DNA from: an uncultured Bdellovibrionales bacterium
GTDB lineage: Bacteria > Bdellovibrionota_G > JALEGL01 > JAGRMV01
Assembly (NCBI GenBank): GCA_964497185.1
Contig: CAZCBX010000002.1
Coordinates: 2,533 to 66,532 of the forward strand
DNA length: 64,000 bases
Direction: 5' to 3'
In this document: positions 19,255 through 54,254 of the stretch, one piece after another
How positions within the stretch are numbered: the first letter of the stretch is position 1
Layout: each line of letters begins with the position of its first letter
Translations under genes and position numbers: made by a program
Notes under the pieces: model-generated
Databases searched by the model: none
What the model was told of the DNA's origin: nothing
What the model saw: the letters and a program-made list of their open reading frames with translations, nothing else

Positions 19255-19384
19255 GGGACCGAAGCTTTTTGAGGCTGGCTTCGTTCTCCTTCGTTCATCA
19301 TGCTCACGTACTGAAGTACGCTGCGCTGATTCCACTCTGTGCGGTCTCACCAGCCTCAAAAAGCTTCTAGTCCTCATACGCGCG
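19255..19384. repeat. Family-2-related intergenic repeat: 18-bp perfect inverted repeat gaagctttttgaggctgg / ccagcctcaaaaagcttc enclosing a 71-bp interior. A ctagtcctc motif follows the right arm.
   Basis: Seen directly. Overlaps a spurious 73-aa ORF. Confidence 0.6.
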
Positions 19385-19489
19385 ATTTTTTTTCTGGTTT
19401 GTACAGTGTGGCCTTGCCATCTACGTCAAGCGCTTTGTCCGTTTGGTCTATATTAAACTATGATGAAATGAACACCCTTAGCTAAGGTA

Positions 19490-19557
19490 GCTTTTTGGGC
19501 TTATGCGAGCGTCTCCGTTAGCTGCGCGAGGACTAGCGAGCATCAGCCCAAAAAGCT
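19490..19557. repeat. Family-2 repeat: stems gctttttgggct / agcccaaaaagc around core GCGAGCGTCTCCGTTAGCTGCGCGAGGACTAGCGAG.
   Basis: Conserved core shared with 35461, 35643 and 54188. Confidence 0.75.
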
Positions 19558-19597
19558 GAAAACTGCGCGCGTTTGAAATAAGAACAAAAAACTCGCT

Positions 19598-20056
19598 TTA
19601 AGCCAAGGACAATTTGGCTTTAATGGCATCGACCGATAGGTCTTCTTTGACCAAGTAACCACCAACAAACTCATAGTGTTGGGCACGCTGAACGTCTTCT
19701 TCTCTTTTTGAACTGGTAAACATCACCACCACGGAAATATCCAAATGGTCCATTTGTCGAACTTCTTTGTATTTTTCTAAAAACTCAAAGCCGTTGACCA
19801 TGGGCATGTTCACGTCGAGAAAAATAAACAGGGGCGGAAAGCCGTCGGGATATTTTGCTTTGTTTTCCTTATGGTTCTTTAAAAAAGAGAGCGCTTCCGC
19901 GCCGTCGCTGACTTCAAAGATTTCAAATTCGCGGTCGATTTTGCCCAACGTTCGTTTTAAAATGTATCGATCCTCTTCAGAGTCATCGACAATCATCACT
20001 GAAATTTTTTTATGTTTTGTCATGGTCTTATAAACGATGGTACAGCAATGGTCCAA
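19598..20056 (-). CDS. Single-domain response regulator (CheY-like), paralog of 6997..7521.
   Basis: VMIVDDSEED...FLDVNMPMVNGFEFLE...FTSS; no output domain. Confidence 0.7.
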   Translation of the reverse strand: MDHCCTIVYKTMTKHKKISVMIVDDSEEDRYILKRTLGKIDREFEIFEVSDGAEALSFLKNHKENKAKYPDGFPPLFIFLDVNMPMVNGFEFLEKYKEVRQMDHLDISVVVMFTSSKREEDVQRAQHYEFVGGYLVKEDLSVDAIKAKLSLA

Positions 20057-20114
20057 GCTTGGATAGTTGTTTCAGGATTAAATATTTTTGATACTCGGCG
20101 CGTGAGACGGGAAT

Positions 20115-20894
20115 ATGTTTGACGCGTTGCTAACAGCCATGGTAGGCATATGCAACATGAAAACACGTAAAAATATTTGGATGTTGTTATGGATGGTTTT
20201 GCTGATTGCCGGTCAAGCGCCTGCTCAAAATGCTATGAAAGACCCTTTTATTCAAATGACCGCACATGAGCACAATAAGACAGGCAAGTGCAATGCCGAT
20301 TTTTTAAACCGGCATCTAGGGGTGGTGCAGAAATTCGAATTTACATCCCAAGATCGGTGTTATTATGGTACATCGGGCGCGGATCAAATTACCTTACATG
20401 CATTTGCCCAACCCCATGAACAATGTCAGCGTCAAGCAAACCGGTCAGCTGATTTTTGTCATTTTCTCACCATCAATGGCAATCATTACCTTGTATCGCA
20501 CCGAACGCGTCTTGTCGCCCACGTTAATTATACTCGGAATACGGTTTCCAATGTCGCGCCAAAAATTTATATTTTCGGCTTGCAGGGGGATGATCATATC
20601 GACTTAAGAGGCCGCCTCTATAATGGGGTGCCACCCACAGGACATGTCAGTTTTCAGGATAATTTTGAGGCTGGTTTGCAAGAACATCTTTATATCTATG
20701 CGGGACCCGGCAACGACTTTCTTGTGGGTAGTTCGGGAGTCAATTATCTCTTTGATGAAGGTGGATGCGATACAGTGATGGGCGTCGATCAAGCAAACGA
20801 TCATTTCTACAAAGACGGCACATCTGATGAGGACTGCAACGAATGGCTTAACATGGACTGGCATCTGTTTAGAGGCGATTCCAGCGGCAATTGA
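20115..20894 (+). CDS. Hypothetical secreted protein with RTX-like Gly/Asp repeats (possible Ca-binding).
   Basis: Signal-like N-terminus. GPGNDFLVG and GGCDTVMG resemble GGxGxD nonapeptides. Weak. Confidence 0.3.
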   Translation: MFDALLTAMVGICNMKTRKNIWMLLWMVLLIAGQAPAQNAMKDPFIQMTAHEHNKTGKCNADFLNRHLGVVQKFEFTSQDRCYYGTSGADQITLHAFAQPHEQCQRQANRSADFCHFLTINGNHYLVSHRTRLVAHVNYTRNTVSNVAPKIYIFGLQGDDHIDLRGRLYNGVPPTGHVSFQDNFEAGLQEHLYIYAGPGNDFLVGSSGVNYLFDEGGCDTVMGVDQANDHFYKDGTSDEDCNEWLNMDWHLFRGDSSGN

Positions 20895-21043
20895 TGGTGT
20901 CAGGTAGCCCAAAAGTGTTAAGCGCTGCATCTAAATTTGCTATGTATGAATATACATTTATAATTTATAAATCATAAGATGCTTAAATTATTGTATTTTT
21001 TTGTGTTGAAATATACATAAAATATATTATACTATCAAGTAAG

Positions 21044-21448
21044 ATGTTGGCGAAAAAAACAGAACGTGCACAATTGCCCGAAAAAAAGCTTAAAGTATTA
21101 ACCAAAGCTTTTTTTGGCATCCTTGAAAACTGGCAGCTCAGCAATAATGACAAAGCCAAACTTTTGGGCTGGGAGTACGAGCACAAACGGTATGTCATCG
21201 ATGAAATGCGCAAAGGACAACGCGCCATTGACCAAGACGATGACAAAATTACGCGCATCATTGAGATCATCAACATTCATAAAAGTTTGCGCCTGTTGTT
21301 TCCCTACGACCTGGATTTGGCGTACCAGTGGATCACTGAAAAAAGAGAAGTGTTCAATCGTCACTCGGCTTTGGACATCATGAAAGCCGAGGGGATCATG
21401 GGTATCACAGCCATACGAAAATATTTGGACCATGCCCGAACTTCTTAA
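21044..21448 (+). CDS. Xre/MbcA/ParS-type antitoxin (DUF2384-like) of a RES-Xre toxin-antitoxin pair.
   Basis: 134 aa immediately upstream of, and overlapping by 17 nt, a RES-domain gene. The C-terminal region resembles the DUF2384 toxin-binding domain. AT-rich promoter region upstream. Confidence 0.55.
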   Translation: MLAKKTERAQLPEKKLKVLTKAFFGILENWQLSNNDKAKLLGWEYEHKRYVIDEMRKGQRAIDQDDDKITRIIEIINIHKSLRLLFPYDLDLAYQWITEKREVFNRHSALDIMKAEGIMGITAIRKYLDHARTS

Positions 21449-22115
21449 AACCGCGTACAAAAAACAGGTTTTTCGTGCATTTAATACCAAAAAAGTTTCT
21501 GAAGAACTGTTGGATGACATTGGGTTAACCCAAGCCGAACAAGACGTTGCCAAAGATTTTTTTTACGATCAAAAAACACAGCAGCAAAATCCAATTGAAC
21601 GGATTTTTGATCGATCCATGGGGCGGGCACAAATTGCCAGAGATATCCACGCCAAGTTCACGCCCGAAAATTGGAGCCATACGCGTTTTTCTGATGGAAG
21701 CCGGGGTGTGTTGTATACCGGGGAGGCTGTACAAACGGTGCTGGAAGAAAAAAAGTTTTACATGCAACGTTTTTACTTCGAAGAGTCCATGAAAAAAACG
21801 TTCAACGTCGATTTTGCCATCAGCAAGTTGCGCATTCAAACCCAAGCCTTGATTGATCTCACCAATGGAAAGTATTTTGATGTCCAGCAACTACAGTGTC
21901 CCGATCAAAAAAGTTATGCGTACTGCCAAGATGTAGCACGCCAGTGCATTGACCAAGGGGCGCAGGCCATTCGCTCGCCATCTGCCCGGCACGACCAAGG
22001 CGTATGCGTACCTATTTTTCGCATTGAGGTTGTGCAAAAAGACTACAACATTCAAACCTATGTGAAGGCCGAAATTGCCCATGGCAAAATGGAGCTTTTC
22101 TATCCCAAAAAATAA
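21432..22115 (+). CDS. RES-domain toxin (MbcT/ParT-like NAD-targeting toxin family).
   Basis: R..E..S pattern: the R of RFSDGSRGVLYTG, downstream E/S residues, and C-terminal RSPSARHDQGVCVPIF. Size 227 aa; paired with an upstream small antitoxin. Confidence 0.6.
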   Translation: MPELLKTAYKKQVFRAFNTKKVSEELLDDIGLTQAEQDVAKDFFYDQKTQQQNPIERIFDRSMGRAQIARDIHAKFTPENWSHTRFSDGSRGVLYTGEAVQTVLEEKKFYMQRFYFEESMKKTFNVDFAISKLRIQTQALIDLTNGKYFDVQQLQCPDQKSYAYCQDVARQCIDQGAQAIRSPSARHDQGVCVPIFRIEVVQKDYNIQTYVKAEIAHGKMELFYPKK

Positions 22116-22146
22116 ACTAAGATTTTGTTGAGAGGATGTGTGGAGG

Positions 22147-22545
22147 TTAAGAGCAGTGGCTCAAACTTTGAATTTTTTGCACCATGGCAAAAAAGCCGTT
22201 GCGGCGGGTGGGGCTTAAATGTTCACCCAAATCCAATTTGGCAAAAATGTCCTCAATGGGCATTTGTTTGATTTCGTATTCGGATTTTCCGCTATAAATG
22301 GTGATTAAGATGGAGGCCAAGCCTTTGACAATGAAGGCATCGCTGTCGGCTTTGAAAAAATACTTGCCGCCTTTTTCCTCACAGGTGAGCCACACTTGGC
22401 TTACGCAGCCTTCAACGCGATTTTGATCGTTGCGATCGGCTTGGGGGAGGTTGGGTAGTTTTTTGCCTAGGTCAATGATGTACCGGTAACGATCTTCCCA
22501 GTCTTCGAACAATGCAAAATTTTCAACCAATTCTTCGGTTGTCAT
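22147..22545 (-). CDS. sufE: SufE-like sulfur acceptor protein.
   Basis: MTTEELVENFALFEDWEDRYRYIIDLGKKLP ... NRVEGCVSQVWL: conserved SufE Cys-containing motif. Start chosen at MTTEEL; the track ORF extends to 22602. Confidence 0.65.
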   Translation of the reverse strand: MTTEELVENFALFEDWEDRYRYIIDLGKKLPNLPQADRNDQNRVEGCVSQVWLTCEEKGGKYFFKADSDAFIVKGLASILITIYSGKSEYEIKQMPIEDIFAKLDLGEHLSPTRRNGFFAMVQKIQSLSHCS

Positions 22546-22611
22546 AGGTCCCTCTACCATTGATCTTTGCGACGCTTCTGAGCATGAGGCGTGCTCATGC
22601 ATCGGCGCAAC

Positions 22612-22917
22612 TTACCAGCTGGATTTGGTCACGCCGGAAATTTCACCGCTGTGCGCCAGCTCGCGAAATTTAATCCGAGATAAACCAAATTTACGGAAGT
22701 TGCCGCGTGGACGACCCGTCAAAGCACAGCGCAAACGAACGCGGGTTTCTGCTGTGTTACGAGGCATTTGTGCCAATTTGGCACGGGCTTCCATTCGCTC
22801 AGTAAGGGGTAGGCTGACGTCTTTGGACCGCTGACGCAATTCTTTGCGTTTGTCCGCTGCTTTGGCAGACCATAAAATACGATGATTGTTTTGTGCAATT
22901 TTTCCTTTTTTAGCCAT
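22612..22917 (-). CDS. rpsN: Ribosomal protein S14 (C-minus long form), outside any ribosomal-protein operon.
   Basis: [39 protein letters not shown] aligns with S14; 101 aa. A single Cys, so no zinc ribbon. Confidence 0.85.
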
Positions 22918-23003
22918 AGACGCCGCTTTTAGCCTACTTTTACCGCAATGGCAAGCAGTAAAATATTGAAAATCACCGATTTCATACGAAAAAAGTCGTA
23001 GGT

Positions 23004-23462
23004 TTATTGGTATTTTTCAATGCGATGGGCTTGAACGCGAAAGGCGGCTTTGAACTGGGGGTGATCGGTCGGCTGTATTTGGAAGGTGCCATAAATCCAA
23101 AAAGGCGCCCAGAGGTCTTCTGGATCGATGCGGTCTTGGGTTAATTCAACCATCACGATCTGATTGGCCGGTGGTGGAGGGCTATGAATGCAGGACACTG
23201 GATAGGGCACGAGGGTAAACTCAAAAATCTCGGCGGCATCGTCGGTCAGTGGGGTAACAAAACCCGCCATTTTAACCTTTTGGTTTTGCAGTGATTGAAG
23301 CAAGTCGGGTGCGTTGCCCGTGGTGGGGTCAAAAGCTTGAAGGTCGTTCCAGGTCAGTTTGGCGTACTCCGGGGCGGGGTCGGTTTTGGGTTTGGTGGTG
23401 CACGCACTCAGACTCAACAGCAAGCCAAAAATACAACCTATTGCGAGACGCCAGTGGTTCAT
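23004..23462 (-). CDS. DUF3299-like lipoprotein (ZrgD-like) of the zinc ABC importer operon.
   Basis: Start chosen at [21 protein letters not shown] (lipobox). Positioned directly after the permease, as in zrgABCD-type operons. Confidence 0.4.
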
Positions 23463-23464
23463 GG

Positions 23465-24673
23465 TTAGCTTTGTAACCCATTTTGCAGCGATTGGCGATA
23501 GGCGATCACGCTCGGCAGCAGAGAAAACACCAGGCTGGCGCCCCATAGCAACCCCAGCCATGTCCATTCGGTGGGATGGATCCAGTGGTGGGTCATGAAC
23601 AAACCATAGTTTTGTTGCAGCCAGGGCGCAGCCAGTCGAAGGCTCACGTGAAGCATCAAAAGCCCTACCACAATGGCCACAGCGCTGATCAGCGCCGTTT
23701 CAATGATAAAAAGACCTGCGATGGATCGCGGCCGCGCGCCCTGCGATCGCAACACGGCCATTTCGTATCGCCGTTCTCTCATGGAGCTAAGCAGCGCGAT
23801 TAAAAGCCCAAACATGGCCGTTACAAACACCAAAAAAGAAATCACCATCAATGTTTTTTCAGCCATGGATACCAAGTTCCACATTTCATACAGGGTGAGG
23901 CTGGGCAAGATGGCCAGCAAGGCCTCCTGTGGGTAGGTATTGAGCCAACGCTGCCATTCAAAAATGGACAATTTGCTTTTGAGCCCAATGAACATGGCGG
24001 TGATGGCTTCGGGGCGCGAAGGAGCGAAACCATCGATTTGATCTTGGTGAAGCCATTCGATGGCCGACAAGTCAACGTAAAGGGCACGGTCCACGGGGGT
24101 GCCGGTGGGTTTTAAAATGCCACTGACGGTAAAACCGTGCTGGTCGTGGGGGGCAAAAGAAGTTTCTCCCAAGCCGTGCGACACGGTGATCGGCTTGCCC
24201 ACCTTGTAGCCGAGCTGTTTGGCCACCCACGCGCCCAGCACAACTTGATGATGGTGTGCAAAAGATTTTCCATCAGCGAAAGTCAGCGGCCGTTTGGGGC
24301 CGTACTGAAAATGAGTAAAAAAATCGGGTGTGGTGCCAATCACGCGGAAACCACGGTGTGAATCGCCAAGCGATATCGGAAGAACAAAGGCTGCTTCGGG
24401 TTCTTGGGTGAGTTGGTCATAAAGATCATATGAAATGTTGTTGCTGGGAAAACCATGGTGAAACACCGTGCTCAATAACAATTGAGTGCTGCCGGTCTTG
24501 GCTCCGACAATTAAGTCAATGTTGGAAACCGTATGTTGAAAACTTTCTTTGGCATCGCGCTGCACGCGTCCCACACCCAAGAGCAACACCACACTCAGCG
24601 CAATGGAAGCGATGGTCAGGCCGACGCTTTGTCTTCGAAACAACAAACTTTGATAAGCCAAACGAAAAAACAT
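23465..24673 (-). CDS. ABC transporter permease (FtsX/MacB-like fold).
   Basis: 402 aa; N-terminal TM, a large periplasmic domain, then 3 C-terminal TM helices. Confidence 0.7.
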   Translation of the reverse strand: MFFRLAYQSLLFRRQSVGLTIASIALSVVLLLGVGRVQRDAKESFQHTVSNIDLIVGAKTGSTQLLLSTVFHHGFPSNNISYDLYDQLTQEPEAAFVLPISLGDSHRGFRVIGTTPDFFTHFQYGPKRPLTFADGKSFAHHHQVVLGAWVAKQLGYKVGKPITVSHGLGETSFAPHDQHGFTVSGILKPTGTPVDRALYVDLSAIEWLHQDQIDGFAPSRPEAITAMFIGLKSKLSIFEWQRWLNTYPQEALLAILPSLTLYEMWNLVSMAEKTLMVISFLVFVTAMFGLLIALLSSMRERRYEMAVLRSQGARPRSIAGLFIIETALISAVAIVVGLLMLHVSLRLAAPWLQQNYGLFMTHHWIHPTEWTWLGLLWGASLVFSLLPSVIAYRQSLQNGLQS

Positions 24674-25944: not shown

Positions 25945-26047
25945 AGCTTTCGATTTACCACATTCATTTCTGGAAGAAAAGACGGGATGATGCTCGCCCT
26001 ATTTTTTCCATGACGAATGCGGGATATTGGCGTACATAGGGCCCCAT

Positions 26048-28864
26048 ATGAGTACCTACGATTTCGCCTCCATCGAACGCAAATGGCAAGATATTTGGGA
26101 AACCCAACGCACGTTTTCATCGGCGCAACCCTCCGATCCCGATTTCGACCCCAACCAACCCAAATATTATGTGTTGGATATGTTTCCTTATCCTTCCGGC
26201 AAGGGCCTTCATGTGGGCCACCCCTTGGGCTACATTGCCACCGATATTGTGGCGCGCTACAAGCGTATGACCGGCCATCAGGTTTTGCACCCCATGGGCT
26301 TTGATGCATTTGGTTTGCCCGCCGAGCAGTACGCCATCGAAACCGGCACGCATCCCGAAGTGACCACATTGAAAAACATCGAAAACATGCGCAAACAGCT
26401 TAAAGCGTGTGGCCTGAGCTATGATTGGTCGCGTGAAATTTCCACAACGGATCCGTCCTATTATAAATGGACGCAGTGGATCTTCTTGCAATTGTTTCAT
26501 GCTTGGTACAATGAACAAACCGACAAAGCCGAGCCGATCGACACACTGAAAAAAGCCTACCAAGCCGATCAATTTCGTTTTGATGGTCAAACACGGCTGG
26601 CCCAATCAGAGGCCGGCTATGCGCAAGCCTCCCCCTGGTTATCCATGACCGATGCACAAAAAGAGCAGGCATTGGCCGCCGATCGTTTGGCTTATATGGA
26701 TGACGTGGTGGTGAACTGGTGTCCAGGCTTGGGCACGGTGCTTGCCAATGAAGAAGTCACCATTGATGGCCGTTCAGAGCGAGGCAATCATCCTGTATTC
26801 AAGCGCCCGCTCAAACAGTGGATGCTGCGCATTACCAAATATGCGGATCGGCTTGAAAAAGATTTAGACCATGTTCACTGGCCTATGGCTGTCAAACAGA
26901 TGCAAACCCACTGGATTGGCAAAAGCCAAGGGGCCAGCGTGTGTTTCAACCAGCACCAACATCCAGAGGCTCCCGCCATTGAAGTTTTTACTACCCGACC
27001 CGACACGCTCTTTGGGGTTACCTTTTTGGTTCTGGCGCCTGAACATCCCATGGTCGATGAGCTTACCACCTCCGAGCAAAAGCAAGCCGTGGCGCAGTAC
27101 AAAAAACAAGCCTTGGCAAAATCGGAAGTGGACCGACAAGCAGAAACACGCGACAAAAAAGGGGTATTTACTGGTAGCTATGCCATCAACCCTGCAAGCG
27201 ATGAAAAAATTCCGGTTTGGATTGCAGACTATGTGCTGATGGGTTACGGCACTGGGGCCATTATGGCCGTTCCGGCGCATGATCAGCGTGATTTTGAATT
27301 TGCCCAAGCCTACAACATCGACATCCGCGCTGTGGTGGAACCCACCCCCAAATTTTTAAAACAGCACACGATCACCTTGCTCGAGTATTTGGAAGACCCG
27401 GGTTATCTATCGGAAGCCTTCACTGAAAAAACCCAATGCACGCAATCGGAAAGCCCAGCGATTAACTTAAACAACTTGCCTTGCGATCGCGCCAGCAAAA
27501 AGATGATTGATTTTTTAGAGCGTCATCAAATGGGGCAGGGCAAAACCCAATTTAAATTAAGGGACTGGCTTTTTTCAAGGCAGCGATATTGGGGCGAACC
27601 GTTTCCAATTTTGCATGGGCCCAACGGTGAAATTCGCGCGGTGGATGCCGACGATTTGCCCGTGGTGCTTCCAGAGCTATCCGATTTTAAACCCACTGCT
27701 TCCGATGACATGGACCAAGCACCCGCGCCTTCCTTGGATCGCGCGCCAGAAGAATGGAAAAAAGTGGTCATCGACGGTGTAGAATACACCCGCGAGCTCA
27801 ACACCATGCCGCAATGGGCAGGGTCCTGTTGGTATTATTTGCGGTTTACCGACCCCAATAACCAAGATGTGTTTGCCAGCCCTGAGGCGCAGGCTTATTG
27901 GATGGGCCAAAAAGGCGTCGATTTGTATGTGGGTGGGGTGGAACATGCGGTCTTGCATCTTTTGTACGCACGATTTTGGCATAAAGTCTTGTACGACTTG
28001 GGGCATGTGGCCTGCATTGAACCGTTTGGCACGTTGTTTAACCAAGGGTACATACAGGCTTATTCTTACCAGGACGCGCGCGGCATGTATGTGGATGCCA
28101 CCGCTGTGGAAGAGGATGATCAGGGCAATTTCACCCATCAAGGCAAACCAGTTACGCGCAATTTAGGTAAAATGGGCAAATCGCTTAAAAATGCCATTGG
28201 TCCGGAAGAAGTCATTGAAACCTTTGGCTGTGATACATTTCGTCTTTACGAAATGTATTTGGGCCCCATTGAGCAGTCTAAAACATGGGATACAGATGCC
28301 ATCATCGGCATTCATCGCTTTTTGCAACGGGTGTGGCGCAATTTTGTGACCGATCAAGCAGAAAAAACAAACCAAAAAGACTGCCCGCTCGAACCCAAAA
28401 TTGCGGGCATCCTGGCACGGACCATCGCGCATGTAACAGAGTCGATGAATGGCATGAAATTTAACACGGCCATTGCGCAATTGATTCAGCTTAACAATTT
28501 ATTTGTGTCCATGGATTGCATTCCCGAGCAGGCGGCCCAAGCCTTTATCAAAATGCTTAGCCCCTTGGCACCGCACATGGCCGAAGAAATTTGGCAAATG
28601 TGGGGCCACACCACGTCCATTGCGCATGCACCATGGCCCACCTACGATCCCAAAGCCCTCGAAAAGGATGAAATCGAGCTGGTGGTGCAGGTCAATGGAA
28701 AACGCCGTGCTAGTTTGCAAGTCAGCCCCAATATTGCCAAAGATGATGCTCAGGCACTGGCTTTGGAGCAAGAAAATGTACAAAAGCACTTGGAAGGCAT
28801 GAGCATCGTAAAATGCATATTTGTGCCCAAGCGCCTGGTCAATTTTGTGGTCAAGCCGCAATAA
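26048..28864 (+). CDS. leuS: Leucyl-tRNA synthetase.
   Basis: MSTYDFASIERKWQDIW N-terminus, HVGHPLGY (HIGH) and KMGKS (KMSKS) motifs; about 938 aa. The track ORF starts 21 nt earlier. Confidence 0.9.
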   Translation: MSTYDFASIERKWQDIWETQRTFSSAQPSDPDFDPNQPKYYVLDMFPYPSGKGLHVGHPLGYIATDIVARYKRMTGHQVLHPMGFDAFGLPAEQYAIETGTHPEVTTLKNIENMRKQLKACGLSYDWSREISTTDPSYYKWTQWIFLQLFHAWYNEQTDKAEPIDTLKKAYQADQFRFDGQTRLAQSEAGYAQASPWLSMTDAQKEQALAADRLAYMDDVVVNWCPGLGTVLANEEVTIDGRSERGNHPVFKRPLKQWMLRITKYADRLEKDLDHVHWPMAVKQMQTHWIGKSQGASVCFNQHQHPEAPAIEVFTTRPDTLFGVTFLVLAPEHPMVDELTTSEQKQAVAQYKKQALAKSEVDRQAETRDKKGVFTGSYAINPASDEKIPVWIADYVLMGYGTGAIMAVPAHDQRDFEFAQAYNIDIRAVVEPTPKFLKQHTITLLEYLEDPGYLSEAFTEKTQCTQSESPAINLNNLPCDRASKKMIDFLERHQMGQGKTQFKLRDWLFSRQRYWGEPFPILHGPNGEIRAVDADDLPVVLPELSDFKPTASDDMDQAPAPSLDRAPEEWKKVVIDGVEYTRELNTMPQWAGSCWYYLRFTDPNNQDVFASPEAQAYWMGQKGVDLYVGGVEHAVLHLLYARFWHKVLYDLGHVACIEPFGTLFNQGYIQAYSYQDARGMYVDATAVEEDDQGNFTHQGKPVTRNLGKMGKSLKNAIGPEEVIETFGCDTFRLYEMYLGPIEQSKTWDTDAIIGIHRFLQRVWRNFVTDQAEKTNQKDCPLEPKIAGILARTIAHVTESMNGMKFNTAIAQLIQLNNLFVSMDCIPEQAAQAFIKMLSPLAPHMAEEIWQMWGHTTSIAHAPWPTYDPKALEKDEIELVVQVNGKRRASLQVSPNIAKDDAQALALEQENVQKHLEGMSIVKCIFVPKRLVNFVVKPQ

Positions 28865-29012
28865 ATAGGCCGACCGAGCGCAGGGCTCGAAAAGGGCAAA
28901 AAGACCCTATTTTTTTTATAGGCATGGCTTGATTTGCAGGTCAAAGCCTGGTATCTACGCAAAGCTTCACAGAATTTGTGTGCGTAGAGGCAACAATATA
29001 AGGATAACCGTT

Positions 29013-31125: not shown

Positions 31126-31160
31126 GTTTTTAAAAAAGCAACACGCCATGATTCAAACCC

Positions 31161-31196
31161 TGCGTCCCCAAAGGGACGCAAGCCTCCTCATTTTTT
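31161..31196 (+). terminator. Family-1-type hairpin tgcgtccccaaagggacgca followed by TTTTTT.
   Basis: Stem-loop plus T-run right after the stop of 30805..31125. Confidence 0.6.
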
Positions 31197-31228: not shown

Positions 31229-31268
31229 CCTCCGTCCCCAAAGGGACTGTCCCTTTAGGGACGGAGGG
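31229..31268. repeat. REP-like family-1 palindrome CCTCCGTCCCCAAAGGGACTGTCCCTTTAGGGACGGAGG.
   Basis: Near-perfect 39-bp palindrome; same family as 10050-10090. Confidence 0.8.
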
Positions 31269-34403: not shown

Positions 34404-35432
34404 ATGAATTCAAATACTTATGATGCTTTTTTGTTGGTTTCATTTGGGGGCCCTGAGGCGCCGGAAGAAGTGATGCCTTTTTTGGATAACGTCCTTCGTG
34501 GCAAACCAGTGTCAGAAGAGCGAAAAAAAGAAGTGGCCGAGCATTATTATCAGTTTGGCGGCGTTAGTCCCATCAATGCGCAAAATCGGGCGCTGATGGA
34601 CAAATTGCAAACGGCATTCCAAGAAAATCAAATTGATCTGCCCATCTACTGGGGCAACCGAAACTGGAAGCCCTACATTCTGGATGCGCTTACGCAAATG
34701 AAACAAGATGGAAAACGTCACGCGTTGGCTTATTTTACCTCAGCGTATAGTTCCTACTCAGGCTGTCGACAGTATCGAGAAAACATCCAAGCAGCCCAAG
34801 CCCAGATAGGAGAACAAGCACCCAACGTGTCCAAACTTCGTATGTTTTTCAATCACCCTCATTTTATTCAAGTCAATGCCAACCATATCGAAGATGCATA
34901 TGCAAAAATGAATAAAACCGATAAAAACAAAACCTTTTTGGTGTTTACCGCCCACAGCATCCCCATCGCGATGAGCGAAAACTGTGATTATGAAATGCAG
35001 CTGCATGAAACAGCCAGACTGGTGGCGCAAAAAGCCGGGTTTGACCATTACCGCCTGGTGTATCAGAGCCGAAGCGGACCACCCCAAATGCCCTGGCTTG
35101 AACCCGACGTATGTGACTTTATTTCTTCTTTGGATGAAAAAAAACATGATGCCGTGTTGGTGGCGCCCATCGGTTTTGTATCCGATCACATGGAAGTCCA
35201 ATTTGATTTGGATGTAGAGGCCAAAGAGGCCGCTCAAAAAAAGGGTTTGAATTTTTTTCGTGCGCGCAGTGCAGGCAATGATGATTTATTCGTGGAAATG
35301 ATTGTGGATTTGGTTTTGGAGCGGATGCACGATCGTGAAGATAAAAAATCGATTGGCCGGCTGGGGCCTTGGCATGATGTTTGTCCGCCGGATTGTTGTA
35401 CTTATACGCCGCGTAGGCCTGTGCAATCTTAG
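34404..35432 (+). CDS. hemH: Ferrochelatase.
   Basis: LLVSFGGPE N-terminal motif and conserved HSIP...MSE core; about 342 aa. Confidence 0.85.
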   Translation: MNSNTYDAFLLVSFGGPEAPEEVMPFLDNVLRGKPVSEERKKEVAEHYYQFGGVSPINAQNRALMDKLQTAFQENQIDLPIYWGNRNWKPYILDALTQMKQDGKRHALAYFTSAYSSYSGCRQYRENIQAAQAQIGEQAPNVSKLRMFFNHPHFIQVNANHIEDAYAKMNKTDKNKTFLVFTAHSIPIAMSENCDYEMQLHETARLVAQKAGFDHYRLVYQSRSGPPQMPWLEPDVCDFISSLDEKKHDAVLVAPIGFVSDHMEVQFDLDVEAKEAAQKKGLNFFRARSAGNDDLFVEMIVDLVLERMHDREDKKSIGRLGPWHDVCPPDCCTYTPRRPVQS

Positions 35433-35460
35433 ATTTTTTATGTTCATTGTGGAATTCTGG

Positions 35461-35533
35461 GGGCCCGAGGGGGTCCGCCTTCGCTAGTCCTCGCGCAGCT
35501 ACCGGAGACGCTCAGGTCGGACCCCCTCGGGCT
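35461..35533. repeat. Family-2 repeat, reverse core orientation: stems gcccgagggggtccg / cggaccccctcgggc.
   Basis: The core cgctagtcctcgcgcagctaccggagacgctc is the reverse complement of the core in 19490-19557. Confidence 0.75.
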
Positions 35534-35642
35534 GGCATTCAGTGGGCGTAATTGGGGGGATGGGTAAAAAATAATGACAAACGCCTGCGGCGTTTGTTTT
35601 TTACATTTATACCAACCACGGTATAGACGCCAATTGCCGTTA

Positions 35643-35713
35643 CAGCTTTTTGGGCTTGAGGCGAGCGTCTCCGCAGCGCAGCGAGGACTAGCGAGTTTCA
35701 AGCCCAAAAAGCT
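35643..35713. repeat. Family-2 repeat: stems cagctttttgggcttga / tcaagcccaaaaagctg around core GCGAGCGTCTCCGCAGCGCAGCGAGGACTAGCGAG.
   Basis: 17-bp perfect inverted repeat; conserved core. Confidence 0.75.
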
Positions 35714-35757
35714 GCTACCGTAAGCGCCTTTAAAACTAAGAAACCAATAAGCGGATG

Positions 35758-44485: not shown

Positions 44486-44746
44486 GCTACAATAAACCGG
44501 CTACGTTAGATCAAGGATTGAACCAAGGTATATTCATGATTGCTTCAAAATTTCCTCTAGCTTTTGTTTTACGTCAGGACATCAAGGTGCAAAGAGGGCG
44601 TACACAATGTCATCATTGCTTAGCTGAAGTCCACCCCATTCGATCATCGACGACATCGTAGGTTTTTTGGGCCGCCCCATGGGGCTGTTATGCAGCAAAG
44701 CGGAATCCTGCCCCAAGGGGCGGCTCAAAAAACCAGAAGTCTCGGA

Positions 44747-48156: not shown

Positions 48157-48849
48157 ATGACAAAGCAAAAATATTGGGTGCTGGTGGTTGAAGATGACCC
48201 AGATCTGCTAGAAATTGTTAAAACCAATTTGGAAGAACTTGGCTACCAAGTTCTAGAGGCGATGGACGGTAGAAAAGCCTGTGAGTTGGCAGTTTCACAT
48301 CAACCCCATTTGATTTTGCTGGATATGATGTTGCCCAAAATGCAGGGCATGGAAGTTTTGCAATTTTTAAAACGCAATAACCAAACCGAGCACATTCCCA
48401 CCATCATTATTTCTGCCAAAGATGATGAAAACACGGTGGTTAAGGCGCTGGAAGAGGGTGCGGATGATTACATCACCAAACCCTGTGGGCCTCGTGAAAT
48501 GGTAGCGCGCATCAAAGCGGTGCTACGACGTCAAGCATCGGAAGAGGGCAGCAGCGAACAAATTAGGGTTTCAGGTGATTTGCGGGTGGATTTTCAAAAG
48601 CACGAAGTGCGCATGCAAGATGAAATTGTGGCCTTGACCAAAACCGAGTTTGATATTTTATGGTCATTTATGCGCGATCACAATCAAGTGTTTACACGCA
48701 AACAGCTTTTGCAAATTATTCATGGCCCTGGCGTCCATACTCTCGATCGAAACATTGATGTGCACGTTGTATCCTTGCGAAAGAAATTAAAGGACCATGG
48801 TCAGAAGATAGAAACCGTTCGCGGTGTTGGCTATCGCATGAATTTTTAA
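48157..48849 (+). CDS. phoB: OmpR/PhoB-family response regulator.
   Basis: REC domain plus a winged-helix C-terminus (VRGVGYRM). Followed by a histidine kinase and pstCAB-phoU. Confidence 0.75.
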   Translation: MTKQKYWVLVVEDDPDLLEIVKTNLEELGYQVLEAMDGRKACELAVSHQPHLILLDMMLPKMQGMEVLQFLKRNNQTEHIPTIIISAKDDENTVVKALEEGADDYITKPCGPREMVARIKAVLRRQASEEGSSEQIRVSGDLRVDFQKHEVRMQDEIVALTKTEFDILWSFMRDHNQVFTRKQLLQIIHGPGVHTLDRNIDVHVVSLRKKLKDHGQKIETVRGVGYRMNF

Positions 48850-50600
48850 TGACGCGCGTTCTTTTTCGTTCTCGGCTTTTTCGCAACTTGTTTGCCATGA
48901 TTGCGGTGCTTTTATTTTTGTCCAGCATGATGGTGGCAGGACTTTACTTTTTTACCTATCGACAGCAAATGTATGCTCAGGTCGAGCAGGACCTTAAACG
49001 TCAAATTCAAATATGGCATGTGATGCATGCGGGCGGACTCGCCGCGCGTGCAAAAACAAACCAGAGCCAACAAGCCATGGTGTTTGATCGCATGACCATC
49101 ATTGATAACCAAGGCAAAGTCTTGCTGGATACCAAAAAAGATCCAAATCAAATGGACAACCACGCGCTGCGGCCTGAAGTTTTGCAGGCAGGTCAAAAAA
49201 CCTGGGCCACTGCCAAACGATACAGCGATACAATGCAGGCACCCTCGCTCTATGTGGCACAGCAGATCCAAGAAAACGGTCAAACCTACACCATCCGAGC
49301 GGCGCGATCGATCAAAGCCATCAATGAAAAAGTGTATGCCCTGCTGGGCAGATTGGTGTTGGTGCAAATCGGGGTGCTCATTTTATCCATGATGTTTTTG
49401 TATTTCGTATTGCGTAGACCCCTGCATGACGTGGCCCACATTCAACACGTGGTGCAACGTTATCAACAGGGCGACTTGACTCCGAGGACCAACATTAAAT
49501 CTACGGGTGAAATCAAAGAACTGGCTTCCGGCATTGACTACATGGCAGATGCGGTACAACAGCGCATGGAGCATTTATCCAATTCGCAGCAGAAACTGCA
49601 TCAAATATTGGATTCGTTGCAAGATGGTCTGGTGATCATGAAAAACAATGCTGAAATTGAATGGTTTAATCGGGCTTTCCAAAACATCATGCAATTACCC
49701 AACTTGGCCAACCACCAAGTGCTGACCGAACAAGTGCGACATGCAGAGATTGTATCATTGATCAACGAGGTGGCCCATCATGGCAAGCCAGCCAAAACGG
49801 TATGCATGGTGGAGGAAGAAAAAACGCAATACTTGCTTTTTCACGCCTTTCCCATTGATTTGCAAACCACCCGCATGCTTGCTTTAAGCGTAACCGATAC
49901 CACCACAGCACACGCAACCAATCGAGCCAAGCATGAATTTATCGCCAATGCATCCCATCAATTAAAAACGCCTCTGGCTGCCATTCAAGGCTTTGCAGAA
50001 ACCATGATGGATTTGCCGCACCTCACCGAGTCAAAGCGGGCCAGCTATCTGCAAAAAATCATAGAGCGCAGCAAAGCTGCAACGGCCATGATTATTCGCT
50101 TGTTAACATTAACCAAAATCGAAGGCGGCGCTTCAGAATTGGACATCCGACCCGTTGATCTTCACACCTTTATCAACGAGGTGGTGGCCAGTCAGGAAGG
50201 GTTGGCTACGTCGTCACAAGTGCAGATCAACACAATGGTTAAGGGCGATGTGCTCGCGGTAGAGACCGATGATCGAATTTTGGACATTGCGGTGAGCAGT
50301 TTATTGGAAAATGCCATTGTTTATAGCCCTAGGGGAGGCGTCATTGAGCTCAAGGTTAAGCGTGAACATGATAAAATCTGCATCCAAATTGCGGATCAAG
50401 GCATTGGCTTTGATGCAGAACAAAAAAAACGTATTTTTGAACGTTTTTATCGCACACCTGAGGCGCAGAATGCACATCAGCAGGGTACTGGCATTGGACT
50501 TGCCCTGGTCCAGCAAGCAGTAGAGCGATTGGAAGGACAATTAAGCATTGAGAGTGAGAAAGGACAGGGCTCTGTTTTTGAAATACGATTTCCAGCATAA
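48849..50600 (+). CDS. phoR: Sensor histidine kinase (PhoR-like), with an unusually large periplasmic loop.
   Basis: 2 TM, HAMP, PAS, HisKA H-box ANASHQLKTPLAAIQGF, HATPase_c with N, G1 and G2 boxes. Confidence 0.7.
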   Translation: MTRVLFRSRLFRNLFAMIAVLLFLSSMMVAGLYFFTYRQQMYAQVEQDLKRQIQIWHVMHAGGLAARAKTNQSQQAMVFDRMTIIDNQGKVLLDTKKDPNQMDNHALRPEVLQAGQKTWATAKRYSDTMQAPSLYVAQQIQENGQTYTIRAARSIKAINEKVYALLGRLVLVQIGVLILSMMFLYFVLRRPLHDVAHIQHVVQRYQQGDLTPRTNIKSTGEIKELASGIDYMADAVQQRMEHLSNSQQKLHQILDSLQDGLVIMKNNAEIEWFNRAFQNIMQLPNLANHQVLTEQVRHAEIVSLINEVAHHGKPAKTVCMVEEEKTQYLLFHAFPIDLQTTRMLALSVTDTTTAHATNRAKHEFIANASHQLKTPLAAIQGFAETMMDLPHLTESKRASYLQKIIERSKAATAMIIRLLTLTKIEGGASELDIRPVDLHTFINEVVASQEGLATSSQVQINTMVKGDVLAVETDDRILDIAVSSLLENAIVYSPRGGVIELKVKREHDKICIQIADQGIGFDAEQKKRIFERFYRTPEAQNAHQQGTGIGLALVQQAVERLEGQLSIESEKGQGSVFEIRFPA

Positions 50601-50666
50601 TCATCGATTGATGAGACGACAAAATGTTTTACAAACCCGTCTTCAAAAGGTAGCTAGAGACTTCTC

Positions 50667-51551
50667 ATGAGATTTATTCGGCTCAAAGAGATACCCGTCC
50701 ATGCGTTTTTGTTTTTGTCGGCTTTTGTATCTATACTGACCACGCTTGGCATCGTCTTGGTGTTGCTCAAAGAAAGTCTCGCCTTTTTTGAAACGGTGCC
50801 GCTCACCGAATATTTGTTTGGAACCCAGTGGACGCCTTTGTTCAAACCTCAGCATTTCGGGTTTCTCCCGCTTTTGTGTGGCACATTGCTCATTGCAGTG
50901 GGGTCTGCCTTTGTGTCGATTCCTTTGGGGGTGCTTACCGCCACGTTTATGAGTGAATATGCCAGTGATCGCGTGCGCGGATGGATTAAACCACTGCTAG
51001 AAATTTTATCCGGTGTACCCACGGTCGTGTATGGCTACTTTGCGCTTACATTCATTACGCCCCTTTTGCGCACGGTTTTCCCTGAAACTGAAATCTTCAA
51101 CGCCGCCAGTGCAGCCATTGTGGTGGGCATCATGATCTTGCCCATGGTGGCTTCCATTAGCGATGATGCGATGCGATCTGTGCCCAATGCCCTTCGTTAT
51201 GCCGCTTATGCCTTGGGAGCAACCAAGTCGGAAGTTTCTACCAAGGTGGTATTCCCAGCCGCGCTATCCGGCGTGATTGCTTCCTTTGTGCTGGCGATTT
51301 CTCGGGCCATCGGCGAGACCATGGCGGTAACTTTGGCCGCAGGGGCAACACCCAACCTTACGCTCAATCCCTTGGAGAGCATTCAAACCATGACGTCTTA
51401 CATTGTGCAAATCAGTTTGGGGGACACCCCGCAAGGCACCATTGAATACCAAACGCTGTTTGTGATTGGGCTAACGTTGTTTGTGATCACCCTGGGTATG
51501 AACTTATGTTCAGACTATATTTTACGAAAGTATCGGCAAAAATATGATTAA
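50667..51551 (+). CDS. pstC: Phosphate ABC transporter permease PstC.
   Basis: 6 TM; EAA-like motif region ALGATKSEV. Confidence 0.85.
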
Positions 51552-52428
51552 AGGATTGGATCAGCAATACATCACGCGGTTAAAAAAGCGCAAACGAAGA
51601 GCAAAAATCTTTCACGGTTTGTGTTTTATGGCTTCCATGGTGGGCTTAATATTTTTGGGCGCTTTGTTTGTCTCCATCATTGGGGACGGATGGGCCTATT
51701 TGTCCTGGGACTTTTTAACCAACTTTCCTTCGCGGTTTGCCCATAAGGCGGGTATTCAGTCTGCACTGATGGGGTCCCTTTGGATGATTGGCTTAACGTG
51801 TTTGTTTGCCATTCCTTTGGGCATTGGAGCCAGTGTATTTTTGGAAGAGTTTGCGCCCAAAAACAAATGGATCAAAACGATTGAAATCAACATCTCCAAT
51901 TTGGCTGGCGTGCCTTCCATCGTCTATGGGCTGCTGGGACTGGCCATTTTTGTTCGCTGGTTTCAATTGGATCGCTCATTGCTGGCGGGGGCATTGACCA
52001 TGAGTTTGCTGATTTTACCCGTTATTATTATCGCTTCGCGTGAGGCCATTCGCACCGTACCCAATTCATTGCGTTACGCGGCTTTGGCTTTGGGTGCAAC
52101 CAAATGGCAAGTGGTCCAGGGCCATGTACTACCTGCGGCCATGCCTGGCATCATGACCGGTATTATTTTATCGGTCTCTCGTGCCATTGGTGAAACCGCG
52201 CCATTATTAATGGTGGGCGCATTGGGATATGTTGCCTACAACCCTCAAGGGCCCATGGATTCTTTTACCGTACTACCCATTCAAATTTTTAACTGGGCTT
52301 CACGTCCGCAACCCGAGTTTCATGCGCTGGCCGCATCCGGCATCATCGTGCTTTTGGTGGTGTTGCTCACCATGAACTCCATTGCTATTTTTCTTAGACA
52401 TCGATTTCAAAAAGGAAAAGTCAAATGA
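51544..52428 (+). CDS. pstA: Phosphate ABC transporter permease PstA.
   Basis: [10 protein letters not shown] motif; 294 aa. Confidence 0.85.
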
Positions 52429-53192
52429 CCGAAAAAGCACAACCCAAACCCATCATGCACTCCAAAGATTTGTCGGTGTTTTACGGCGATTTTCAAGCGG
52501 TGAAACAAGCCAGCATTCCCATTTATGAAAAAACAGTTACTTCCATCATTGGCCCCAGCGGATGTGGAAAAAGCAGCTATTTGCGCTGTTTGAACCGCAT
52601 GAACGACTTTATCCCCGGCATTCGCATTGATGGACAAACCACCTATCAAGGCAAAAACATTTACGATGCCGACATTGATCCCGTTACACTTCGCAGAAGC
52701 ATTGGCATGGTTTTTCAAAAACCCAACCCCTTCCCAAAAACCATTTATCAAAATGTGGCCTGGGGTCCCAAAATCAATGGCATTCGAGACAACATGGACG
52801 AAAGAGTGAACAAAGCGCTCAAGCGTGCCGCCATCTGGGATGAAGTGAAAGATAAACTGGATCAAAGCGGACTTTCATTGTCGGGTGGTCAGCAGCAACG
52901 CTTGTGCATTGCGCGCGCCATTGCGATGGAGCCTGAAATTATTTTAATGGATGAACCATGCAGTGCGCTGGATCCCATTTCCACCAGCAAAATCGAAGAT
53001 TTAATTTTTGAGTTAAAAAAGAAATACACCATTGTGATTGTTACGCATAATATGCAACAAGCCGCGCGGGTTTCAGATTACACGGTGTTTATGTACCAGG
53101 GTGAAGTGATTGAGTACGGACCTACAGATCGTATATTTACCCGCCCTCAAAAACAGCAAACTGAGGATTATGTCACGGGCAAGTTTGGCTAA
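52425..53192 (+). CDS. pstB: Phosphate ABC transporter ATP-binding protein PstB.
   Basis: GPSGCGKSS Walker [15 protein letters not shown] signature, [11 protein letters not shown]. Confidence 0.9.
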
Positions 53193-53355
53193 AGGAGTAC
53201 GGGCTTCGAACGGAGGAAACCGCATAAATGGCACAGCTTTCCGCTTGCGCCTCAATCTGTGCTCATTTCTGCGATTTCGGTTATATGGAAATTTATAGGG
53301 ACTTAAGGATATCGACATTTTGACGTAAGGTAAAAAATAAGAGAGGAAAAAACGT

Positions 53356-54018
53356 ATGTCCAAACATTTAGAGAATGATTTAGAAAAATTAAAAAAAGAT
53401 ATTTTGCAAATTGGTACCATGGTGGAGGAAACCGTTGAAAAAGCCATGCGGGCTTTTCGTAAGGGAGATGTCGAAACTTCTAAAAAAATCATTGAAACCG
53501 ATGAGATCATCAATGCCAAAGAAGTGGAAGTAGAAGAAGAGTGTTTAAAACTTTTGGCCCTCTATCAACCAGTGGCGCAAGATTTGCGTTTTATCACCAC
53601 CGTCATCAAGATCAACAACGACCTAGAGCGCATGGGCGACATATCGGTGAAAATTGCCAAGCGCACCATTTCCTTATCCAAGGAACTGCCCATTGATATT
53701 CCGGAACAGCTAACCCAAATGACAAGAATCACCAAATCAATGGTGAAAGATTCACTCAACGCGTTTTTTAACAAAGACGCATCGCACTCGCGTGAAATAT
53801 GTCAGCGCGACGATCAAGTGGACAAACTGCACAAAGAAACCATCCGCTTGCTTCGAGAAAAAATGCAAGAAGACGGCAAAAACATTGATCAGTACCTCGA
53901 TATGGTCACCGCGACCAAGGGCATTGAACGGATCGCAGATTTGGCCACCAACATCGCACAGGATGTAGTGTACATGGTTGAAGGTGAAATCATTCGCCAT
54001 CAAAACAACTGGGTATAG
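53356..54018 (+). CDS. phoU: Phosphate signalling regulator PhoU.
   Basis: Two PhoU repeats (E..DxxxD patterns); 220 aa. Confidence 0.85.
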   Translation: MSKHLENDLEKLKKDILQIGTMVEETVEKAMRAFRKGDVETSKKIIETDEIINAKEVEVEEECLKLLALYQPVAQDLRFITTVIKINNDLERMGDISVKIAKRTISLSKELPIDIPEQLTQMTRITKSMVKDSLNAFFNKDASHSREICQRDDQVDKLHKETIRLLREKMQEDGKNIDQYLDMVTATKGIERIADLATNIAQDVVYMVEGEIIRHQNNWV

Positions 54019-54047
54019 TGATTAAAAACTTTCGTTTCAAAGCCGCT

Positions 54048-54080
54048 CCCGAGCAGAGCTTTTTGGGCTTAAAGCTCCGG
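54048..54080 (+). terminator. Hairpin gagcttt-ttgggctt-aaagctc after phoU; a partial family-2 arm.
   Basis: 7-bp stem; shares gctttttgggctt with family-2 stems. Confidence 0.4.
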
Positions 54081-54187
54081 CGTAAAATCGAAATTTGTTT
54101 CGGGGTAAAGTAAATATATAGAAATAAACGCCAACGGCGTTTATCTTTATTACCTCTATCCAACCCACAATGAAGCAGAAATATCAG

Positions 54188-54254
54188 CCCGAGGGGGTCC
54201 GTATGGGCGTCTCCGGTAGCTGCGCGAGGACTAGCCCATACGGACCCCCTCGGG
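54188..54254. repeat. Family-2 repeat: 20-bp stems cccgagggggtccgtatggg / cccatacggaccccctcggg around core GCGTCTCCGGTAGCTGCGCGAGGACTAG.
   Basis: Perfect 20-bp inverted repeat; conserved core. Confidence 0.8.

Follow-up and report, generated by a model that had tools for sequence, protein, structure and literature searches.

Repetitive extragenic palindromes (REPs) have been split into a GTAG- and a CGTC-tagged superfamily (Di Nocera, De Gregorio & Rocco 2013, BMC Genomics 14:522, PMC3733652). The CGTC-tagged REPs, which include dRS3 from Neisseria and RPE-4 and RPE-6 from Rickettsia, show the tag variants TGTC and CCTC and short unpaired tails, lie no more than 20 nt from gene 3' ends in convergent and co-directional spacers, form inverted dimers with conserved spacers, and share an unusual similarity across five phyla without an associated transposase; REPs nested in longer palindromes, such as CGTC-1 of Halothiobacillus, are also known (PMC3733652). 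Here we describe a hairpin repeat with a CGTC tag in the intergenic regions of a 64,000-nt stretch of DNA (the window) from an uncultured Bdellovibrionales bacterium (assembly GCA_964497185.1, contig CAZCBX010000002.1, positions 2,533 to 66,532). With moderate confidence we regard these repeats as a new family of CGTC-tagged REP elements related to the NTS/SRM repeats, which are nested in longer palindromic arms, arranged in units resembling bacterial interspersed mosaic elements (BIMEs) and probably read as single-stranded DNA (ssDNA) by an Ssn-type enzyme.

Ssn, the partner enzyme of the CGTC repeat class, was identified only in 2025. The Ssn proteins are small GIY-YIG nucleases which bind and cut CGTC-tagged repeats on one strand and only as ssDNA (Nat Commun 2025, 16:2388, PMC11893778). 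The corresponding repeat in Neisseria, NTS, has the sequence CGTCATTCCCGCGMAVGCGGGAATCYRG and the ends CGTC...CYRG, and the SRM pattern is HGTCWYN(0-2)YYVSBRHN(0-5)WNVSBRGN(0-2)RNCYNB (PMC11893778). SsnA cuts only if GTC precedes the palindrome and binds only if C follows it, and a replaced or extended loop is accepted; the known ssn genes are usually flanked by their own repeats, and in Neisseria the role of Ssn and NTS is to limit transformation (PMC11893778).

Core, arms and copies in the window

A pattern scan for intact copies (CGTCTCCG-N7-12-CGAGGACTAG) gave matches at 19510-19536 (+), 35484-35510 (-), 35666-35691 (+) and 54208-54234 (+), with none expected by chance in 100 shuffles, and thus confirmed the four copies that an initial annotation of the window had proposed. 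These copies, here named A to D, and several remnants have in common the asymmetric core CGTCTCCG-N8/9-CGAGGACTAG within long complementary arms. As the annotation had also claimed, the arms are of two unrelated types, type 1 around copies A and C and type 2 around copies B and D. A single long hairpin is predicted for each of the four (z = -3 to -8 versus shuffles), and all of them are recovered at 43-66 bits by the covariance model described below. The copies and their relatives in the window are as follows.

19489..19557, + strand: copy A, with type-1 arms AGCTTTTTGGGCT; core at 19510-19536; covariance model score 48 bits
35463..35532, - strand: copy B, with type-2 arms CCCGAGGGGGTCCG; core at 35484-35510 on the - strand; 42.6 bits
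35643..35714, + strand: copy C, with type-1 arms; core at 35666-35691; 65.9 bits
54187..54255, + strand: copy D, with type-2 arms; core at 54208-54234; 55.9 bits
63222..63297, + strand: decayed chimeric copy with a type-2 left arm, the mutated core GGGTCTCCACAGCAAAGCGAGCACTTAG and a type-1 right arm; 10.8 bits
19255..19384, no strand assigned: palindrome of about 130 nt with type-1-like arms AAGCTTTTTGAGGCTGG, abutting a 9-nt solo core fragment CTAGTCCTC at 19370-19378

Gene calls from JGI together with Pfam confirmed the three convergent contexts named earlier (dcd/RR, where RR is a response regulator, hemH/DUF1499 and phoU/rlmD) as DCD/Response_reg, Ferrochelatase/DUF1499 and PhoU/TRAM-tRNA_U5-meth_tr. 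Copy A lies 41 nt from the response-regulator stop (19598, - strand), copy B starts 31 nt past the hemH stop, copy C adjoins the DUF1499 stop (35758, - strand) and copy D lies 10 nt from the stop of the rlmD-like gene (54265, - strand). The hairpin of copy C is lengthened by an imperfect stem to 35634-35723, and copy D has GGG/CCC pairs in place of a GA/GA internal loop. A further intact copy is present 10 kb past the window on the same contig (locus L106, 15654-15710), showing that the core is found elsewhere in this genome. In the 73 kb of the source contig that were covered, which come from a lineage with 47% GC, there are therefore five intact copies plus remnants, and all five are intergenic and located at gene 3' ends. 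The diverged relatives listed in the initial annotation were of different kinds. While 63222-63297 is a decayed chimeric copy, which folds no better than shuffles (z about 0), 54048-54080 is a solo type-1 arm from which the core is absent, and 19255-19384 is a different palindrome beside a core fragment; we take these two together for the left module, in disrupted form, of the dcd/RR unit described in the next section.

The core is 26-30 nt long and near-identical across several unrelated bacterial phyla. Its conserved part consists of two strands, CGTC-TCC-GCA and GA-GGA-CTAG, around an apical mini-hairpin that varies in length and sequence but keeps its G:C closure. Apical variants are GC-GNA-GC, GACC-GAA-GGTC, GGATAC-GAA-GTATCC, GGAGC-CCT-GCTCC and GCGC-TT-GCGC, and the window copies have GC-TGC-GC. 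One reading frame of the core gives RVSAAQRGLA, but a coding function was rejected because the frequent GCGTAGC variant adds a stop. The presence of CGTC in all copies found by pattern is partly owed to the search pattern, which requires it; the covariance model alone additionally found copies with the tag variants TGTC (L001) and CCTC (L068, L037, L086) and diverged copies with the tails CCAG and CTCG beside CTAG. In an alignment of 51 distinct copies, from which the covariance model was built, the pair directly outside the core covaries freely, with CG, AU, GC, UA and GU all seen. Pairing is found in 85.7% of the arm cells; shuffles give 68% and slid controls no more than 45%, and cells in which both sides have changed number 209 versus 62 in shuffles. 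Optional purine-purine internal loops occur beside the core, GA/GA in the window and in copies from the candidate phyla radiation (CPR) and GGA/GAA in Gemmatimonadota. The GC-rich core is retained even in CPR genomes of 35-41% GC. In a metagenome-assembled genome (MAG) of Berkelbacteria (L017, 3880-3990), three direct half-sites TTTTCCGTCTCCG(C/T)A with a 38-nt spacing precede a complete copy immediately; their iteron-like arrangement suggests that the 5' strand is recognised on its own.

BIME-like mosaic units and an empty site

The initial annotation had treated the copies as separate hairpins, a view that has to be corrected: each is one module in a larger intergenic unit that is itself repeated. 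This unit became visible in a whole-length alignment of three intergenic regions, hemH/DUF1499, rlmD/phoU (reversed) and purM-like/infA (10 kb past the window). It starts with a type-2 hairpin with the core in minus sense, followed by a spacer of about 45 nt, the intrinsic terminator GAYAAACGCC-N3-GGCGTTTRTTT, a second spacer of about 45 nt, a type-1 hairpin with the core in plus sense and finally GCTGnnnCGnAAGCGnCTTTRAAAC. With a size of about 250-330 nt the unit fills the convergent intergenic regions, and the arrangement is a BIME-like mosaic of hairpin, terminator and inverted hairpin. In the window it is represented by the following features.

35433..35757, + strand: complete mosaic (BIME-like) unit in the hemH/DUF1499 convergent spacer (alignments A2 and A3)
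35577..35603, no strand assigned: canonical bidirectional intrinsic terminator ACAAACGCC-TGC-GGCGTTTGT followed by a T-run, the central module of that unit
54019..54264, - strand: reversed mosaic unit between the phoU and rlmD-like genes
54124..54151, no strand assigned: terminator module of the phoU/rlmD unit, ATAAACGCC-AAC-GGCGTTTAT followed by CTTTATT

In the phoU/rlmD unit the type-1 hairpin has no core and no second arm, leaving one arm copy at 54057-54069, and according to the alignment the dcd/RR spacer and the spacer at 63.2 kb are partial or deletion derivatives of the unit. In a relative whose hemH is 62% identical, hemH and DUF1499 are separated by only 3 nt versus 326 nt here, and the covariance model found no copy in 44 kb from two relatives. 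As the site is empty in the relative and no copies were detected in these 44 kb, we conclude that the unit is a lineage-specific insertion. At other loci 11 inverted pairs were found, always in the identical relative orientation, and outside the window the single hairpin is the usual form. In other genomes some copies are truncated, partial copies stand in tandem, and one genome may hold several arm subfamilies. This is the behaviour of a dispersed repeat and not that of a vertically conserved RNA gene. That stems which are exchanged while pairing is kept indicate a selected hairpin was therefore only partly right, as the two arm types in the window are modules of one mosaic unit and nested REPs were already known.

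Three readings of the repeats had been offered initially, a REP- or MITE-like mobile element (MITE, miniature inverted-repeat transposable element), a terminator family and a small structured RNA. The REP part of the first one is borne out by multiple extragenic copies, inverted dimers, partial copies, the empty site, the patchy lineage-specific distribution and a tag and architecture like those of the CGTC-tagged REPs. The repeats are also generic REPs in being short imperfect palindromes, with a core inside the usual range of 20-40 nt, a bias towards 3' ends and BIME-like dimers. As in the BIMEs and REPINs from E. coli, a conserved central motif is framed by a pair of REP-type hairpins in inverted orientation, and the sites are convergent 3' spacers. 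Differences are that the central module is an intrinsic terminator here but an IHF site in BIMEs, that every REP here sits inside a long palindrome of its own, that the tag is CTAG/CGTC and not GTAG as in REPINs, and that no RAYT (the REP-associated tyrosine transposase) was detected in the flanks.

A conventional MITE derived from an insertion sequence, with a DDE transposase acting on terminal inverted repeats, would account for a unit of about 300 nt which has inverted core copies near both ends and is scattered between unrelated gene pairs. Neither target-site duplications nor direct repeats surround the units or hairpins, however, no transposase is present in any flank, and single hairpins prevail outside the window. 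Moreover, the outer arms differ between ends and genomes while the inner core is conserved, which is the reverse of terminal-repeat logic, and we consider a MITE very improbable. An equally low probability is assigned to portable cassettes of intrinsic (hairpin-type) terminators. The sites at the 3' ends of genes and tRNA genes, the CPR arms, whose 5' side is rich in A and whose 3' side is rich in T like those of bidirectional terminators, and the real terminator inside the mosaic unit would all agree with such cassettes. On the other hand, the hairpins of the window and of Gemmatimonadota have no 3' T-run, and between those of the window there are canonical terminators in their own right (35577-35603, 54124-54151), so that the hairpins precede the point at which transcription actually ends; nor would termination require an asymmetric core of 26 nt to be conserved. 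The terminator reading is thus not supported.

Spread across phyla and polarity towards gene ends

When one genome per species was scanned with the exact pattern, 67 loci were obtained, of which about 40 have complementary flanks and the others are at chance level, and a scan of metagenomes returned 24 loci, nearly all of them true copies. Altogether the same core was seen in unrelated yet complementary arms at about 60 loci. True copies are present in many Gemmatimonadota MAGs (several per genome), in one Binatia MAG (7 loci), in Krumholzibacteriia, in two Spirochaetota and, within the CPR, in Saccharibacteria, Doudnabacteria and Berkelbacteria. Two 'Akkermansiaceae' contigs with copies, L032 and L064, belong to the same MAG (64% GC); because L032 shows gene-for-gene synteny with Gemmatimonadota loci and is probably mis-binned, Verrucomicrobiota are not counted as host. 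With the core recurring in these other phyla, the copies do not go back to one recent local duplication, which the initial annotation had named as a refuting case. A phage origin was rejected, as a scan of viral contigs gave four chance matches with flanks that are not complementary. A literature search by sequence strings found nothing.

The window corresponds to bases 9463-73462 of a 437-kb JGI metagenome contig, and the position of the source lineage was looked at with two proteins. Its leucyl-tRNA synthetase (about 26000-28900 of the window; L101 1645-4461) has its best matches, at 65% identity, among proteins from Bdellovibrionales/Bdellovibrionota MAGs, and the nearest named homologues of the ferrochelatase (34404-35432) are from Pirellulales (about 60%). 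The source thus is a deep, uncultured and probably Bdellovibrionota-like lineage, and the differing affinities suggest either that hemH was transferred horizontally or just that close relatives of the lineage have not been sequenced.

The copies are oriented with respect to genes. For 73 copies the spacers are convergent in 18 cases, co-directional in 11 and divergent in one. If the core is written as CGTC...CTAG, 52 of 57 copies turn their CTAG side to the 3' end of an opposite-strand gene, as do 20 of 21 after orthologous sites are collapsed. Hairpins start within about 0-20 nt of stop codons, and in Berkelbacteria four copies with the same polarity are located 7-13 nt past tRNA genes. As paired copies in one spacer have opposite directions, each towards its own gene, the polarity follows the genes and not replication. 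A few reliable CPR copies have the opposite orientation (L025 2372-2431, L017 3789-3848 and L027). We regard this polarity as real but only partly explained, and it hints at selection or targeting tied to transcription or translation.

From this polarity it follows that the adjacent mRNA carries the reverse complement of the CGTC strand. Every copy in the window is placed between a stop codon and a canonical terminator and therefore is transcribed into a 3' untranslated region (UTR), which makes 3'-UTR transcription, and hence a passive effect as RNA hairpin, near certain in the window from position alone. As RNA hairpins, other REPs act as a barrier to 3'-exonucleases and affect terminating ribosomes, and a passive role as stable 3'-UTR hairpin is probably secondary here. 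A stronger version would be an RNA element under selection, in which the conserved internal-loop nucleotides bind an RNA-binding protein or RNase and control stability, processing or termination at the mRNA 3' end, with the spread being secondary. The short distance to stop codons and tRNA genes, the transcription of every window copy, the 20:1 polarity towards the upstream gene, helices that covary on either side of conserved unpaired nucleotides and the retention of the GC-rich core in CPR genomes of low GC content would fit such an element. However, the strand carried by the mRNA is the worse-folding one, as the RNA fold is better on the CGTC strand in 46 of 57 copies and the tandem G.A pairs of the CGTC strand become U.C on the mRNA strand. 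The arms also decay with all kinds of mismatches (42 G.T, 24 A.C and 60 others, written in CGTC sense) and show no bias towards wobble pairs in mRNA sense. Furthermore, the upstream genes are functionally incoherent, relatives have no copies and an empty orthologous site, truncated copies are frequent, and the CPR copies mentioned above are reversed. The comparison with Rfam that had been suggested gave no match at gathering score over the window, and with relaxed thresholds, E<=10 for the copies and E<=1 for those found in three other phyla, only noise appeared. We therefore think a selected 3'-UTR element rather unlikely, and the structured RNA offered initially as one of three readings is weakened as a primary function by the same results, including a better-folding strand that is antisense to the adjacent gene.

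Several known RNA and DNA motifs were also compared by hand. A K-turn was rejected as position 1b is C and not G, and the iron-responsive element, bacterial SECIS, the hammerhead, loop A of the hairpin ribozyme, domain V of group II introns, the Y RNA/Ro helix, the signal recognition particle RNA and the sarcin-ricin loop showed a partial, unconvincing likeness. For an integron attC site conserved parts at the hairpin base and AAC/GTT triplets are expected, neither of which is present. Assigning the functional strand from wobble pairs was abandoned as well, the signal (G.T 42 vs A.C 24) being weak.

Relation to CGTC-tagged REPs and a candidate partner enzyme

The repeats agree with the CGTC-tagged REPs in their unpaired 5' CGTC tag with the same variants TGTC and CCTC, in a short imperfect palindrome followed by a short unpaired tail, and in their extragenic position no more than about 20 nt from gene 3' ends in convergent or co-directional spacers. 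They also share the inverted dimers with conserved spacers, the nesting in longer palindromes and the similarity across phyla, and no tyrosine transposase was found near the copies. The present hosts (Gemmatimonadota, Binatia, Krumholzibacteriia, Spirochaetota, CPR and the Bdellovibrionota-like lineage) are absent from the phyla listed for CGTC-tagged REPs.

For a comparison with the Ssn systems, Ssn genes and their flanking repeats were taken from Neisseria, Photobacterium, Planktothrix and Spirosoma records. The repeat flanking the Ssn gene reads CGTC-AT-TCC-CGCGCAGGCG-GGA-AT-CTAG in Neisseria and TGTC-A-TCC-TGAATGTA-GCGAAGC-GAAATGAA-GGA-T-CTCTAG in Planktothrix, and the core of the window family reads CGTC-TCC-GCA-GCGAAGC-GA-GGA-CTAG, so that tag, TCC/GGA triplet, apical GCGAAGC and tail correspond. 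In terms of the SRM pattern CGTCTC fits HGTCWY and GACTAG fits RNCYNB, and the tails CTAG and CCAG fit the CYRG of NTS. Likewise, both are directional hairpins with a seemingly dispensable loop, an apex of CAG/GAA type and two strands that can be told apart, and hundreds of copies clustered around genes were counted as a further likeness.

These correspondences suggest the following model. The functional core would be a directional imperfect hairpin made up of the 5' CGTC tag, the TCC/GGA stem, the unpaired GCA and GA, a dispensable mini-hairpin and the 3' CTAG (CYRG) tail. Whenever the DNA becomes transiently single-stranded, during replication, transformation or cruciform extrusion, the long arms might snap back and present the core of the CGTC strand to a trans-acting enzyme specific for sequence and strand, most likely a small GIY-YIG single-strand nuclease of the Ssn family. 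Recognition by this enzyme could hold the core constant across phyla while arms and apical loop may vary as long as they stay paired, and the relationship between enzyme and repeat would account for spread and maintenance of the copies.

A number of results weigh against this model. The stem is TCC/GGA broken by the unpaired GCA and GA, whereas the described CGTC families have 8-9 bp starting with AT; the apex is a variable GC-clamped mini-hairpin and not a loop of 4-5 nt; the tail is CTAG and not CCA; and the inverted dimers carry CGTC inside and not outside. With these definitions of stem, loop and tail the repeats fall outside all four described CGTC families. Compared to NTS, the AT dinucleotides are missing, and the outer arms of 12-25 bp place the predicted cut site upstream of CGTC in a paired region or in the small G.A internal loop. 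The blocks YYVSBRH...WNVSBRG of the SRM pattern could not be placed on CGCAGCGNAGCGAG when checked by hand, and the covariance model (R1) of the window family does not detect NTS/SRM copies. As ssDNA both strands fold equally stably, and a 20:1 polarity towards the adjacent stop is not predicted by a purely ssDNA mechanism. Finally, a hidden Markov model built from four real Ssn homologues found no such gene (GIY-YIG type cd10448) in about 750 kb flanking about 75 copies, including the window and 73 kb of the source contig.

A REPIN or REP family moved by a RAYT (a Y1 HUH transposase) has to be weighed as well, the mRNA-sense strand then being CTAG plus an imperfect hairpin like that of GTAG REPs. 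GTAG-3 REPs from Enterobacteria have unpaired tri-nucleotides and GC-clamped apical mini-hairpins, and GTAG dimers prefer the tag outside, with the GTAG tag often supplying the TAG stop of the upstream ORF (PMC3733652). Read from the CTAG end, the repeats resemble GTAG-3 REPs in their succession of tag, stem, unpaired trinucleotide and GC-clamped mini-hairpin, their inverted dimers with CTAG outside correspond to the preferred GTAG dimer type, and the polarity is the same. The first base of the tag, however, is C and not the conserved G, and phmmer with RayT from E. coli and 16 diverse queries gave no RAYT or TIRYT match among 6,522 ORF stretches from all flanks. The genes between hairpin pairs are ordinary (PRA-PH, TonB_C, TolB-like, peptidase M16 and metallophosphoesterase). 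Sequences of REP/RAYT systems are usually lineage-specific and not identical across phyla, unlike the core described here. This makes a RAYT-driven family quite unlikely.

In an all-against-all comparison of the flanking ORFs no protein family was common across phyla. A less likely reading is that no known REP enzyme, neither RAYT nor Ssn, is involved and that an undescribed system with a new nuclease, recombinase or RNA-binding factor couples a single-strand hairpin to gene ends. In that case the polarity seen from CPR to Gemmatimonadota would reflect targeting or function coupled to transcription or translation. The gene-linked polarity and a partner gene that was not found in the available sequence leave room for such a less ordinary explanation.

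For the assignment to NTS/SRM-related REPs, which we favour, the host range of CGTC-tagged NTS-like repeats would be widened to unlisted phyla, including the tiny CPR genomes and a deep Bdellovibrionota-like lineage. The core, which hardly changes between phyla, offers a testable recognition unit in which the tag and the TCC/GGA stem are combined with the unpaired GCA and GA and with the CYRG tail. A new pair of hairpin and enzyme specificity would have practical value, as site-specific ssDNA nucleases are wanted as tools. The 20:1 polarity and the mosaic of hairpin, terminator and hairpin might also aid the annotation of 3' intergenic regions and guard against miscalling these repeats as small RNAs or terminators.

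A few further observations concern sequences beside or similar to the repeats. Between hairpin pairs at four Gemmatimonadota loci (L088, L024, L055 and L078) there is a conserved small ORF behind a strong GGAGG site; its product, (M/V)FDPKNRIHWLAVIVIAIILILILGV, is a hydrophobic peptide, which in L078 forms the N-terminus of a 177-aa TonB_C protein. The 18-24-nt sequence CCGCAGCGCAGCGAGGAC recurs in unrelated plasmid families, namely in non-coding hairpin regions by oriT/oriV of IncX4 and small MOBQ plasmids:

L092, 3001-3033: plasmid locus with CCGCAGCGCAGCGAGGAC
L093, 2565-2589: plasmid locus with CCGCAGCGCAGCGAGGAC
L094, 2001-2019: plasmid locus with CCGCAGCGCAGCGAGGAC

Despite this recurrence the link is probably due to chance, with E about 1, a different fold and nothing found by the covariance model.

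The window contains a second CGTC-tagged palindromic family, CGTCCCCAAAGGGAC, at 10046-10087, 10190-10215, 31155-31180 and 31229-31268. Some of its copies are joined back to back in inverted dimers whose tags lie on the outside (CCGTCCCCAAAGGGAC-AG-TCCCTTTGGGGACGG), others are small hairpins standing alone, and with the outline CGTC-CCC...GGG-AC the family looks like the main core reduced to a minimum. The hairpin at 44668-44730, with the arms TTTTTTGGGCCGCCCCATGGGGC and GCCCCAAGGGGCGGCTCAAAAAA, has GCAGCAAAGCG in its loop, which is the apical part of the core, but neither of the strands CGTCTCC and GGACTAG, and could be either a distantly related element or a terminator. At 55660-55682 and 55780-55802 the two arms of a perfect inverted repeat of 23 nt, CTTTGGGCTTGCCCCAAAAAAGC, enclose 97 nt upstream of a DeoC-like gene, and the arm resembles inverted type-1 arms. 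A third palindrome family, TTGGGGACAGACACC...GGTGTCTGTCCCCAA, is found at 14854-14891 and 15881-15918, about 40 nt behind the respective member of a pair of 64-nt direct repeats (14753-14816 and 15786-15849, 94% identical); the two sets are 1 kb apart. At its left end the window also includes 13-14 tandem copies of a 372-nt coding repeat (positions 1-5100, 69-85% identical), which lie within an ORF (140-6367, 2075 aa); this large, repetitive gene resembles one for a surface protein and extends past the left edge.

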